Shown: positions 38,225 through 40,608 of the stretch, piece by piece | Numbering within the stretch: position 1 is the stretch's first letter | Layout: every line of letters begins with the position of its first letter | Source: an uncultured Erysipelotrichaceae bacterium | Lineage (GTDB): Bacteria > Bacillota_I > Bacilli_A > RFN20 > CAG-826 | Reading direction: 5' to 3' | NCBI GenBank assembly: GCA_900316365.1 | Contig: ONCO01000005.1 | Coordinates: 95,621-159,620, forward strand | Length of the DNA: 64,000 nucleotides | Translations under genes and position numbers: made by a program | Notes under the pieces: generated by a model | Seen by the model: only the letters and a program-made list of their open reading frames with translations | Database searches by the model: none | Told to the model about the DNA's origin: nothing

Positions 38225-39346
38225 ATGAGCAAAACGTCATCCCTTTTCAGGACCAGAAAGAAAAGAATTTATCATTTGGACGATGAGAAGTTCTATTTGG
38301 CCATGAAGGAGAACTGTCTTTTCCATTACACCCACAACAAAGACTATAAGCGCATATTGGATGAGGCCGGGTTTTCGCCTGACGACATTAAATCGTATGA
38401 CGATTTGGCTAAAATCCCATTTCTCCCGACTCTATATTTCAAACATCACAAACTGCTCTCCCTCAAGAAAAACCACTATATAGTGAAGGCCACTTCCAGC
38501 GGAACAAGCGGGAAAAACGTTTCCCTTATCGGACTTACCTTGTCTGATCTTTTAAGGGGCTGGGATATGGTGAGGAACGTCTTCGCCTATCATCATCTTT
38601 GGTCTTTGAAGCCGCATCGTTACATCATCTTCGGCTATCAACCCCATAAGGGCAACGATAAGGCCATCGCCAAGACCGCGCATGGCTTCACCTTTGTCTC
38701 TCCGGCTAGAAGCAAAGACTATGCGATTAGGTGGACGAAAGACGGCTATAAAGTAGATTTAGACAACCTAGAGCGGAAATTCATCAAGTATTCCAAAGGA
38801 AGAACGCCGGTCAGAACACTGGGTTTTCCCGCTTATACTTACTTCTTATTAGAGCAGATGAAGGATAAAGGCATTAGGTTGAAAATGCCCAAGGGATCGA
38901 TCATCACCCTAGGCGGCGGCTGGAAGTCTTTTTATAAAGAAAAGGTCGATAAGGAGACCTTCTACAATCTGGTGAATGAGGTGTTGGGCATTGATGATAA
39001 ACACGTGTTTGAATTCTTCGGCGCCGTCGAGCATCCAATCCTTTACACCGACTGCCGTTATCATCATTTTCACATCCCAAACTACGCGAGGGTGATCATC
39101 AGGGACATCGAAACCCTCCAGCCTGTCAAACCTGGGGAAGTGGGGCTAATCAACTTATTGACTCCGATGAGCAAAGGCACGCCGCTTCTTTCGGTGATGA
39201 CCGATGATTTGGGAATCTTGCATGAAGAAACGTGCCCATGCGGCGAGAAATCACCGTATTTAGAAATCTTAGGCCGTAGCGGCCTTGAAGATATCAAGAC
39301 CTGCGCCGCCGGGGCGGAAGAACTCTTAAAGGGAAGCAAATCATGA
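38225..39346 (+). CDS. LuxE-like acyl-protein synthetase (adenylate-forming; PaaK/LuxE superfamily)
   Basis: ~375 aa. ATSSGTSGKNV nucleotide-binding loop. Overall similarity to the LuxE/phenylacetate-CoA ligase fold, recalled from memory. Paired with a LuxC-like reductase through a 4-nt overlap. The track ORF start at 38159 is a TTG inside the terminator T-tract and was rejected. Confidence 0.5.
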   Translation: MSKTSSLFRTRKKRIYHLDDEKFYLAMKENCLFHYTHNKDYKRILDEAGFSPDDIKSYDDLAKIPFLPTLYFKHHKLLSLKKNHYIVKATSSGTSGKNVSLIGLTLSDLLRGWDMVRNVFAYHHLWSLKPHRYIIFGYQPHKGNDKAIAKTAHGFTFVSPARSKDYAIRWTKDGYKVDLDNLERKFIKYSKGRTPVRTLGFPAYTYFLLEQMKDKGIRLKMPKGSIITLGGGWKSFYKEKVDKETFYNLVNEVLGIDDKHVFEFFGAVEHPILYTDCRYHHFHIPNYARVIIRDIETLQPVKPGEVGLINLLTPMSKGTPLLSVMTDDLGILHEETCPCGEKSPYLEILGRSGLEDIKTCAAGAEELLKGSKS

Positions 39347-40608
39347 TTCTATATAAGGGCGAAATATATCCAAACGAAAAGCAGGGCGAGCTCATCGCGT
39401 CTTTAAAAGGCGAGATGCTTTTGACCTTAGAAAAGGGTGAAACCCTTTCTTATCTCACGGTCATCGACGCCTGCGACCGACTCTACCAAAGGGTCATGAA
39501 TCACGAATTCGATGATGTGGCCATGCCTCTGCTCAACGCTGTTAACATGCCATTCTCCGCCTTGGAAAGATACGCCGGTTGTTTCTCCAAAGAGGGGCTT
39601 CTTAAGAAGATAGATACCGAATTGGGCGAGCTCAAAAACGGCGTGTTGTCGCTTGATGAAGATAACAATCGCTTCTATGAGCCTTTGGGCATCTTGTTCC
39701 ATGTCGCTGCCGGCAATGTTGATCTTTTGCCCGCCTATAGCGTGGTGGAGGGGCTTCTAGTCGGAAACATCAATATCCTTAAGCTTCCGACTGGCGATAA
39801 TGGCTTGTCCGTGATGCTTTTAAAGGAATTAATCAAAGAGGCGCCGGTGCTAAAAGATTACATTTACGTTTTCGATGTGCCGAGCACGGAAATCGAGACC
39901 ATCAAGCAATTATCCGCTTTGGCGGACGCCACCATCGTTTGGGGCGGTGATATGGCCCAGAGTGCCGCTAGGTCTTTCGTGGACATCCATTCATCCATCA
40001 TCTCTTGGGGTCACAAAATCTCTTTCAGCTATGTCGATAAAAACGTGACCGACGAGGAGATCGAGGCTCTATGCTTCTCGGTCTGCTTATCGAATCAGCT
40101 TTTCTGCTCCTCTTCGCAAGGCATATACGTGAATACGGATAACAAAGAAGAGCTCCACGATCTCGCCAAACGCATCCTCCCGATCATGAAGCGCGTGAGC
40201 AAGACGCTAAACACATTGCCGATGACGATGAAGGCAAAGAACACCTTGCTCATTTATAACGAAAAACTAGAAGGCAATGGCGGGAACATCTATGCCGACG
40301 GCGGAGTTTCTCTCATCGTTAAAGACGACCAAGCGCTCGAACTCTCTTACCTATACCAGAACCTTTGGATCAAAGCCCTCAAGGAAGAGGATATCGTTAG
40401 AGTCTTAAAGCCGAACAAGAATCTTCTCCAAACCGTTTCGATTAATAGGGGCATTAAGGATAAGGAAAAGATTTGCTCCTTATTGGCCAAAGCGGGCCTC
40501 GTTAGAATCACCGCCTTAGGCGATAATTCGCGAATGATAGCCGGCGAAAGCCATGATGGTGAATACGCTTTAAGGCGTTATATAAGAATCGTCGAGACCA
40601 TAAAGTAG
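39343..40608 (+). CDS. LuxC-like long-chain acyl-CoA/acyl-protein reductase (aldehyde-forming, ALDH-superfamily fold)
   Basis: 421 aa. FHVAAGNVDLLPAYSVVEGLLVGNINILKLP and a candidate catalytic Cys in NQLFCSSSQG fit the LuxC family (PF05893-type), recalled from memory. ATGA-coupled to the LuxE-like gene. Confidence 0.5.
   Translation: MILYKGEIYPNEKQGELIASLKGEMLLTLEKGETLSYLTVIDACDRLYQRVMNHEFDDVAMPLLNAVNMPFSALERYAGCFSKEGLLKKIDTELGELKNGVLSLDEDNNRFYEPLGILFHVAAGNVDLLPAYSVVEGLLVGNINILKLPTGDNGLSVMLLKELIKEAPVLKDYIYVFDVPSTEIETIKQLSALADATIVWGGDMAQSAARSFVDIHSSIISWGHKISFSYVDKNVTDEEIEALCFSVCLSNQLFCSSSQGIYVNTDNKEELHDLAKRILPIMKRVSKTLNTLPMTMKAKNTLLIYNEKLEGNGGNIYADGGVSLIVKDDQALELSYLYQNLWIKALKEEDIVRVLKPNKNLLQTVSINRGIKDKEKICSLLAKAGLVRITALGDNSRMIAGESHDGEYALRRYIRIVETIK

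Follow-up and report, generated by a model that had tools for sequence, protein, structure and literature searches.

What would a strictly anaerobic gut or rumen bacterium do with enzymes of the kind that supply aldehyde for bacterial light? The question is raised by two adjacent genes in a 64,000-nucleotide stretch of DNA (the window) from an uncultured Erysipelotrichaceae bacterium, of the Bacilli of gut or rumen (assembly GCA_900316365.1, contig ONCO01000005.1, positions 95,621 to 159,620). A first-pass annotation, made from the letters of the sequence, described them as an orphan LuxE/LuxC-like pair outside any lux operon. The analysis reported here makes it probable that the pair is a self-contained, cytoplasmic, two-protein acid reductase of the LuxE/LuxC type, acting most likely on a medium- or long-chain fatty acid. 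The genes, and the codons on which this reading turns, are as follows.

38225-39346, plus strand: luxE-like gene, 373 amino acids; an adenylate-forming acyl-protein synthetase of family PF04443.
38492-38515, plus strand: codons of the phosphate-binding loop (P-loop) T90-S-S-G-T-S-G-K97, aligned to TSSGTSG of Photobacterium phosphoreum LuxE.
38924-38926, plus strand: codon of Lys234, in GGGWK; equivalent to LuxE Lys238.
39275-39304, plus strand: codons of Arg351 to Cys360 (GRSGLEDIKTC); equivalent to LuxE Arg355 and Cys364.
39343-40608, plus strand: luxC-like gene, 421 amino acids; an acyl-thioester reductase of the aldehyde dehydrogenase (ALDH) fold, family PF05893.
40105-40107, plus strand: codon of Cys255, invariant in 44 sequences; counterpart of Cys296 in P. 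phosphoreum LuxC, the catalytic residue that becomes acylated.
Within 40429-40557, plus strand: codons of Gln363, His404 and Asp405; equivalent to LuxC Gln402, His442 and Asp443 at the cleft entry.

Each protein matches a single Pfam family over nearly its full length. The LuxE-like protein scores 161.4 bits against PF04443 (cut-off 24.9), its residues 30-365 aligning with positions 45-387 of a 391-position profile, and the LuxC-like protein scores 190.1 bits against PF05893 (cut-off 21), its residues 40-415 aligning with positions 9-400 of 401. The lengths first estimated, about 375 residues for the first protein and 421 for the second, are close in the one case and exact in the other. When all sequences of the Protein Data Bank (PDB) are searched, the sole match of the LuxC-like protein is the LuxC chain of the P. 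phosphoreum complex 7XC6 (7xc6_A, E = 3.3e-12), and the best match of the LuxE-like protein is the LuxE chain of the same complex (7xc6_E, E = 1.6e-26), PaaK ligases following at about 1e-6. The best relatives are therefore the 7XC6 chains, and not the phenylacetate-CoA ligase and unrelated ALDH that the first-pass annotation had held out as the alternative outcome. The NCBIfam models draw a finer line. Against the lux-operon LuxE equivalog NF052244 the LuxE-like protein reaches 106.2 bits with a cut-off of 550, and against the LuxC equivalog NF052251 the LuxC-like protein reaches 66 bits with a cut-off of 750; because these cut-offs are missed so widely, the two proteins are family members but not orthologues of the lux enzymes. 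NCBIfam also gives partial matches of the LuxE-like protein to PaaK and FlxY, the PaaK models TIGR02155 and NF041878 matching fragments at 27.7 and 41.2 bits (cut-offs 646 and 700). By sequence, then, the pair reads as distant yet genuine relatives of LuxE and LuxC. The family assignment is already found in public annotation and this is not a new kind of enzyme.

The residues required by the lux enzymes are known from cryo-electron microscopy and mutagenesis of the Photobacterium LuxC-LuxE complex (PMC9157457). In LuxE they are K238 (the K238A enzyme is inactive), R355 and the self-acylated C364, which lies in a flexible C-terminal motif not resolved by cryo-electron microscopy; the corresponding set in LuxC consists of C296, which is acylated, and of Q402, H442 and D443 at the entry of the cleft. 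The equivalents in the window proteins were located with HMMER alignments to the 7XC6 chains, in which the numbering of the paper is the chain index plus 11, and conservation was counted over 75 homologues of the LuxE-like protein and 44 diverse family sequences for the LuxC-like protein. In the P-loop, the TSSGTSGK motif correctly picked out at the start, S91, T94 and G96 are present in all 75 homologues, and S92 and G93 in 74. Lys234 and Arg351 are likewise kept in 75 of 75 and Cys360 in 74, with the nine-residue spacing from Arg to Cys that is seen in LuxE. In the LuxC-like protein Cys255, Gln363 and Asp405 are invariant and His404 nearly so (at least 90%).

The architecture of the two proteins is in keeping with these residues. 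The LuxE-like protein ends 13 residues past Cys360 and does not have the C-terminal subdomain of the adenylate-forming enzyme superfamily (ANL). Its AlphaFold model, for which database homologues were supplied, has a predicted local distance difference test (pLDDT) score of 81.6, and the parts of low confidence are the tail (residues 353-373, which fall below 50), the P-loop (90-98) and the loop that follows GGGWK (235-239); just such a pattern would be seen if the tail swings as an arm and the loops of the active site are mobile. The LuxC-like model has a pLDDT of 92.6, and its top PDB match by Foldseek is again 7xc6_A (E = 3e-20, template-modelling (TM) score 0.74, 19% identity), with other ALDHs following at E of about 2e-15. 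No hydrophobic segment is found in either protein, and both are presumably cytoplasmic.

From the conserved residues, the architecture and the linkage of the two genes, a general relay mechanism can be proposed with good confidence. The LuxE-like protein would adenylate a free acid with ATP, most likely a medium- or long-chain fatty acid obtained either from the rumen or gut surroundings or from lipids of the cell itself, and would then place the acyl group on its own Cys360, in the flexible C-terminal tail. The tail would carry this group across to the LuxC-like protein and its Cys255, where NAD(P)H would reduce the thioester and the aldehyde would be released, to be reduced to an alcohol, to enter a membrane lipid or to meet some other fate. 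Neither CoA nor a gene for a carrier protein or thioesterase is part of the two-gene unit. The proposed chemistry has functional analogues in carboxylic acid reductase (CAR) and in TabE (bioRxiv 10.1101/2025.08.11.669332), in which an ATP-activated acid passes through a thioester to an aldehyde by NAD(P)H-dependent reduction. CAR, however, carries its adenylation, carrier and reductase domains on one polypeptide, with a phosphopantetheine arm and an SDR-type reductase, and TabE, a stand-alone ALDH-fold acyl-thioester reductase, needs acyl-acyl carrier protein (acyl-ACP) or acyl-CoA made elsewhere; unlike both, the window pair would have as its "arm" a cysteine residue, borne by an adenylating subunit that is a protein of its own.

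In a database clustered at 90% identity, relatives of the LuxC-like protein number more than 1,100; in a library clustered at 50% the protein matches 1,381 clusters at E <= 1e-3, 208 of them at E <= 1e-30, and species-representative genomes contain at least 573 matching stretches. Loci were compared for the best 80 of these 573 or more stretches, 79 of which contain a luxC open reading frame (ORF). Almost all of the 80 are from Bacillota: metagenome-assembled genomes of rumen Bacilli (up to 83% identity), Erysipelotrichia (about 72%) and, at about 40-50% identity, Izemoplasmatales, Acholeplasmataceae, Anaeroplasma, Lachnospiraceae, Ruminococcaceae, Oscillospiraceae and Symbiobacteriaceae. Among the carriers that are in culture are Ruminococcaceae bacterium KHP2 and YRB3002. 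luxE lies directly 5' of luxC on the same strand in 75 of the 79, the exceptions being contig ends or apparent fusions, and one LuxE-LuxC fusion protein exists. In the window the luxE-like stop and the luxC-like start share the four bases ATGA at 39343-39346, which bears out the translational coupling noted at first for the two genes, and an identical four-nucleotide overlap is present in 25 of the 75 paired loci. LuxE and LuxC pairwise identities correlate at r = 0.86 over 2,628 locus pairs. The strict pairing, this co-variation and the fusions lend indirect support to a complex of the two proteins and to reduction of the acyl-enzyme to an aldehyde.

The pair is found in different genomic places in related genera, and what accompanies it changes from place to place. 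No third gene recurs when all ORFs of the 80 loci are clustered by BLAST, the next commonest cluster being present in seven loci at scattered positions, and no neighbour family recurs in a Pfam scan, where the most frequent accounts for four of 143 immediate neighbours. Because luxE and luxC are adjacent in 75 of 79 loci and no other neighbour family recurs, the pair is best described as a self-contained two-gene module. An ACP, a thioesterase, an alcohol dehydrogenase, a transaminase, a lipid synthase, a transporter and a regulator were each considered as a conserved third partner, and nothing of the kind is recurrent in the 80 loci. Between the window and a second strain of the species, the ratio of nonsynonymous to synonymous substitution (dN/dS) comes to 0.05 (luxE) and 0.10 (luxC); this 98-99% identical strain was used because synonymous sites are saturated in comparisons with the 72-85% identical relatives. 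The pair is under purifying selection. The second strain (locus L083) has the same gene order from rplM to rarA, with the pair between the same neighbours.

Related arrangements are found on several plasmids and in larger proteins. A Chloroflexota plasmid (CP069395.1) carries an overlapping E-then-C pair at 36.7% identity, without partners, much as in the window. Many proteins of about 820-850 residues (P0213, P0218, P0223, P0224, P0231 and others) begin with a LuxC domain and end in an adenylation domain of the AMP-binding type, and on a Salmonella IncF plasmid (CP053580.1; 6001-8409 of locus L090) a LuxC::AMP-binding fusion has a LuxE-like "acyl-protein synthase" on one side and a PaaK-family ligase on the other; in sequence this fusion arrangement looks like a more elaborate relative of the luxE/luxC module. 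A 10-kb L. plantarum plasmid (NZ_CP035118.1; 1624-6321 of locus L088) has in a row the genes of an SLC23-type transporter and an acyl-CoA synthetase, then those of a LuxC-family reductase (22% identical to the window protein) and an SDR oxidoreductase, possibly a cassette for uptake, activation, reduction and a second reduction. Both of these plasmids resemble the window in pairing an adenylating enzyme with a LuxC-family reductase; they differ from it in the added transporter and SDR of the one, and in the fusion and PaaK-like ligase of the other.

Set beside the P. phosphoreum complex, the pair shares the two Pfam families, the P-loop, the Lys, Arg and tail Cys of LuxE and the Cys, Gln, His and Asp of LuxC, together with a LuxE that has a disordered Cys tail in place of the ANL C-terminal subdomain and a LuxC-like fold nearest to 7xc6_A. 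It is unlike the complex in its low identity (about 19% for LuxC, roughly a quarter for LuxE, with scores far below the equivalog cut-offs). The lux operon is ordered luxC-D-A-B-E, whereas the window has E then C, overlapping, and is without luxA, luxB, luxD or luxG. The tail motif of lux LuxE is TRxxKGCxLS, that of the window family GRVGxxDIxTCA(A/Q)GA, the consensus across the homologues; the LuxE-like protein has a CxCG motif, and the hosts are anaerobic Bacillota. The 421-residue LuxC-like protein does not have the 33-residue C-terminal extension: its alignment to 7xc6_A runs no further than residue 444 of the 477 in the chain and residue 417 of its own 421, and the protein ends about four residues past the HDG region, family members being 418-431 residues long. 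As far as sequences tell, the subfamily stands apart from its lux counterparts by the make-up of the operon, the physiology of the hosts, the motif of the tail and the absence of the LuxC C-terminus.

Other non-lux homologues of luxC and luxE have been described in the flagellin glycosylation islands of Aeromonas and Enterobacteriaceae, where they are presumed to provide a lipid-derived building block (PMC7874193, PMC4875605). By description these too belong to the LuxE and LuxC families, and their non-luminous hosts carry them apart from any lux operon. They differ from the window pair in belonging to Proteobacteria and in lying with genes for an acyl carrier protein, FabG, an AMP-ligase, pse products and glycosyltransferases, whereas the window pair has no conserved partner. 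No literature on a stand-alone Bacillota LuxE/LuxC subfamily was found, the contexts described being lux, flagellin islands, mel2 and TabE; in a 2025 review of the ALDH superfamily, luminescence is the one setting in which LuxC is discussed.

Several observations weigh against the reading of the pair as a fatty acid reductase. The literature yielded no experiment on any member of the subfamily. With about 19% identity to LuxC in the structure alignment and with the NCBIfam thresholds missed as they are, substrate and cofactor cannot be safely transferred from the lux enzymes. The part of P. phosphoreum LuxC that is missing, its last 33 residues, helps to form the oligomerisation domain and the exit of the long L-shaped acyl cleft, where I472, L478 and F483 lie, and within the cleft S166 is replaced by L129, Y291 by S250, F297 by S256 and F436 by M398. 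The modelled fold of the LuxE-like protein is closest to PaaK-type aryl-acid ligases, and the CxCG is PaaK-like. No LuxD-type thioesterase is present as a source of free acid, and no aldehyde-using gene is encoded nearby; with no conserved neighbour, the genomic context cannot show how the aldehyde is used. ATP-dependent reduction of an acid is, furthermore, costly for a fermenting anaerobe.

The first-pass annotation held the two genes to be the minimal machinery for activating a fatty acid and reducing it to an aldehyde. A machinery of this kind is supported by the family membership and the conserved catalytic residues; the word "fatty" is taken from the family. The precedent of the family, together with the plentiful free fatty acids of the habitat, makes an acid of medium or long chain somewhat better than an even bet. 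The strongest competing reading has the same two-thiol relay work on another acid, an aromatic one (e.g., phenylacetate), a short- or branched-chain one or a rumen or gut hydroxy acid, to give a small aldehyde or alcohol. Foldseek gives as the best matches of the LuxE-like model the aryl-acid ligases PaaK1 (2Y27) and BT_0428 (4R1L), at E of about 2e-15 and TM of about 0.67, with 7xc6_E outside the top 50, and C337 and C339 of the CxCG are invariant in the LuxE-like homologues, present in PaaK and absent from LuxE; a non-fatty substrate is therefore possible. The partial NCBIfam matches to PaaK and FlxY, the IMG name "PaaK-like adenylate-forming protein" on members of the LuxE-like cluster, the lost cleft-exit tail and altered cleft residues of the LuxC-like protein, and the SLC23-type transporter of polar solutes beside a distant plasmid homologue lean the same way.

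On the other side, the sequence of the LuxE-like protein favours LuxE over PaaK, both in the PDB search and in its Pfam score, and none of the 80 loci has aromatic-acid catabolic genes near the pair. The fold ranking would reflect a PaaK-like N-terminal domain common to both groups, possibly together with the poor density of LuxE in 7XC6. Resemblance to the PaaK-type ligases extends to the N-terminal adenylation fold and the CxCG and GR hinge motifs; the window protein is, by contrast, some 60 residues shorter, has no C-terminal subdomain, ends in a Cys tail and is paired with a LuxC-family reductase. Weighed together, these points leave a substrate other than a fatty acid as the less favoured choice, at perhaps one chance in a few.

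Less probable by a good margin of the evidence is that there is no relay at all, the LuxE-like protein acylating CoA or some other acceptor while the LuxC-like protein separately reduces acyl-CoA or acyl-ACP of general metabolism. LuxC itself accepts acyl-CoA in vitro, and ALDH-fold thioester reductases such as TabE act alone on acyl-ACP or acyl-CoA. But the LuxE-like protein is without the ANL subdomain that is used for CoA thioesterification and has the acyl-accepting Cys in 74 of 75 homologues, and the genes are almost never apart, co-vary and are sometimes fused. We regard separate action of the two proteins as improbable.

Could the pair instead be one component of something larger at this place in the chromosome? 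The signals around the genes bear on this point.

38137-38169, plus strand: terminator-like hairpin (38137-38155) and T-run after the second tRNA-Val, from a terminator scan and the sequence.
38190-38218, plus strand: promoter-like site, GTGACA, a 17-nucleotide spacer and TATTCT; a consensus match with a putative function.
41600-41623, plus strand: first terminator-like site 3' of the luxC-like gene, beyond the XRE gene, from the terminator scan.

The start of the luxE-like gene is placed at ATG 38225 because the conserved N-terminus, MSxxxKLFRxxKPYD, which is kept in homologues down to about 45% identity, begins there. An alternative start in the mechanical ORF list, TTG 38159, was set aside; it lies inside the T-run of the terminator and the residues it adds are not conserved. 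The -10-like TATTCT ends six nucleotides before the ATG and the gene is without a Shine-Dalgarno (SD) sequence, so that its transcript is probably leaderless. The same six-nucleotide spacing is found in eight of 48 alignable homologous loci, from several lineages, and a spacing of seven in two more, while every other offset within 0-29 nucleotides occurs in zero to four of the 48. Loci with the short spacing, besides the window, are L001, L003, L005, L045, L006, L007, L011, L082 and L041; most of the remaining loci have an ordinary SD before luxE. This distribution suggests leaderless mRNAs in part of the luxE-like family. For the luxC-like gene, AAGGGAAG lies 6-13 nucleotides 5' of the ATG. 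Judged from its sequence, the hairpin at 38137-38169 separates the pair from the genes upstream. The terminator scan found no terminator between the luxC-like gene and the XRE gene that follows, and in this species the XRE gene may therefore be co-transcribed with the pair. No regulatory RNA was found upstream of the pair, the Rfam matches in the window being four tRNAs only.

The features on either side of the pair are these.

35657-35814 and 37949-38106: 158-nucleotide direct repeat, 94% identical, with tRNA-Val(CAC) in each copy.
35712-35786 and 38004-38078: the two tRNA-Val(CAC) copies, the second 146 nucleotides 5' of the luxE-like gene.
35916-36428: ECF sigma factor, inside the 2.1-kb segment bracketed by the tRNA-Val repeat.
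36425-37900: anti-sigma-like protein of 491 residues, single-pass, with no Pfam match, also bracketed by the repeat.
40779-41582, plus strand: XRE-type helix-turn-helix protein, with GGAGGA 7 nucleotides 5' of its ATG and about four hydrophobic segments in its C-terminal half.

The placement of the pair just after a duplicated tRNA-Val and beside a membrane-anchored XRE regulator, as originally described, agrees with these coordinates, and the hydrophobic segments make a membrane-anchored regulator the natural reading of the XRE-type protein. An alternative XRE start at TTG 40716 was considered, ATG 40779 with its GGAGGA being likelier. In the second strain (8641-8764 of L083) the second repeat copy is a truncated tRNA remnant, and a tRNA-Thr follows the first copy; the anti-sigma gene of that strain is longer (523 residues).

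The suggestion that the pair sits in an accessory patch holds in part: the pair does shift place in related genera, but its guanine-plus-cytosine (GC) content is normal (0.46-0.47, with 0.489 for the window), the second strain has the same neighbours and housekeeping genes lie around it. A stronger form of the idea would make the pair part of a larger strain-specific accessory island, run by, and working with, the membrane-bound XRE protein or the ECF sigma factor beside the duplicated tRNA-Val. The lack of a detectable terminator from luxC to XRE, the divergence of 36677-43363 between the strains (90.8% identity, against 96-99% in the flanks) and the tRNA-Val repeat that brackets the sigma and anti-sigma genes could be read in this way. 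Against it, the XRE, sigma, anti-sigma and tRNA genes do not recur beside the pair in other loci (the XRE gene adjoins it only within this species, and tRNA genes are not regular neighbours), the GC is normal, a terminator and a promoter-like site part the pair from the upstream genes, and neither the LuxE-like nor the LuxC-like protein has a PADLOC match that would link it to anti-phage defence. Such an island is thus very unlikely. A signal of horizontal transfer was also sought and rejected, the GC being normal and tRNA genes not regularly adjacent elsewhere.

The 64-kb window as a whole is ordinary chromosome, with the pair among housekeeping genes. It includes tsaB/D, an asnS- or aspS-like gene, pcrA, ligA, gatCAB, smpB, ECF transporter genes, truA and yebC, and further rplM-rpsI, GH16, rarA, adenine deaminase, GH3, a LytTR two-component system, glpK and anaerobic glycerol-3-phosphate dehydrogenase genes. 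Between the yebC-like gene and rplM there is a gene for an AbiEi-family antitoxin/regulator (32551-33156, minus strand; PADLOC AbiEi, E = 2.7e-34), with no AbiEii toxin gene adjoining it. About 16 kb 3' of the pair, at 56775-61359 on the minus strand, glycerol kinase lies beside the anaerobic-type glycerol-3-phosphate dehydrogenase genes (DAO/Fer2_BFD, Pyr_redox_2, DUF1667); these are genes of ordinary glycerol catabolism that touch lipid backbone metabolism, and no link from them to the pair was found.

That the pair might be left over from a lux operon and be decaying or non-functional, or be tied to light production, a notion to which only the family names and a RefSeq Gene Ontology term "bioluminescence" on a distant homologue lend anything, is effectively refuted already by strong purifying selection, intact catalytic residues, the at least 573 matching stretches in species-representative genomes, the absence of any luxA/luxB luciferase or LuxD family gene across the 64-kb window (as the first-pass annotation had observed) and the strictly anaerobic life of the hosts, in which an oxygen-dependent luciferase makes no sense.

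If the pair is, as we think probable, a LuxE/LuxC-type fatty acid reductase, what might the aldehyde be for? One speculative answer, which we put forward as a long shot, is that the module supplies free long-chain aldehydes in anaerobic, often fatty-acid-scavenging Bacillota, feeding ether-type or plasmalogen membrane lipids, or fatty alcohols, by a route apart from PlsA/PlsR. Bacterial plasmalogen synthesis in anaerobes uses long-chain aldehydes, not alcohols (Goldfine and Hagen 1972, as cited in PMC9702350), and the accepted route is the action of PlsA/PlsR on diacyl lipids. Rumen and gut Bacilli, Izemoplasmatales, Acholeplasmataceae, Anaeroplasma, Ruminococcaceae and Lachnospiraceae could be the hosts of such an aldehyde source. 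No link of the pair to lipid genes was found in the loci compared, and the plasmalogen proposal is without genomic support; were it true, it would give a genetic basis to the old observation that aldehyde and not alcohol is used.

As a database finding the result is modest, since the chemistry is predicted and is not new. Work on LuxC and LuxE has been confined to their part in providing the aldehyde for bacterial light, and here they appear as a compact, autonomous two-gene unit. Strict anaerobes among the Bacillota of gut and rumen, some of them from lineages whose genomes are reduced, carry the unit in at least several hundred species-level genomes. Such hosts cannot make light, and their spending of ATP to reduce an acid calls for an explanation. 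Should a fatty aldehyde or alcohol be the product, the module would be an unrecognised piece of the lipid metabolism of the gut microbiome, and would offer a small, carrier-free alternative to carboxylic acid reductases for the engineering of anaerobes.

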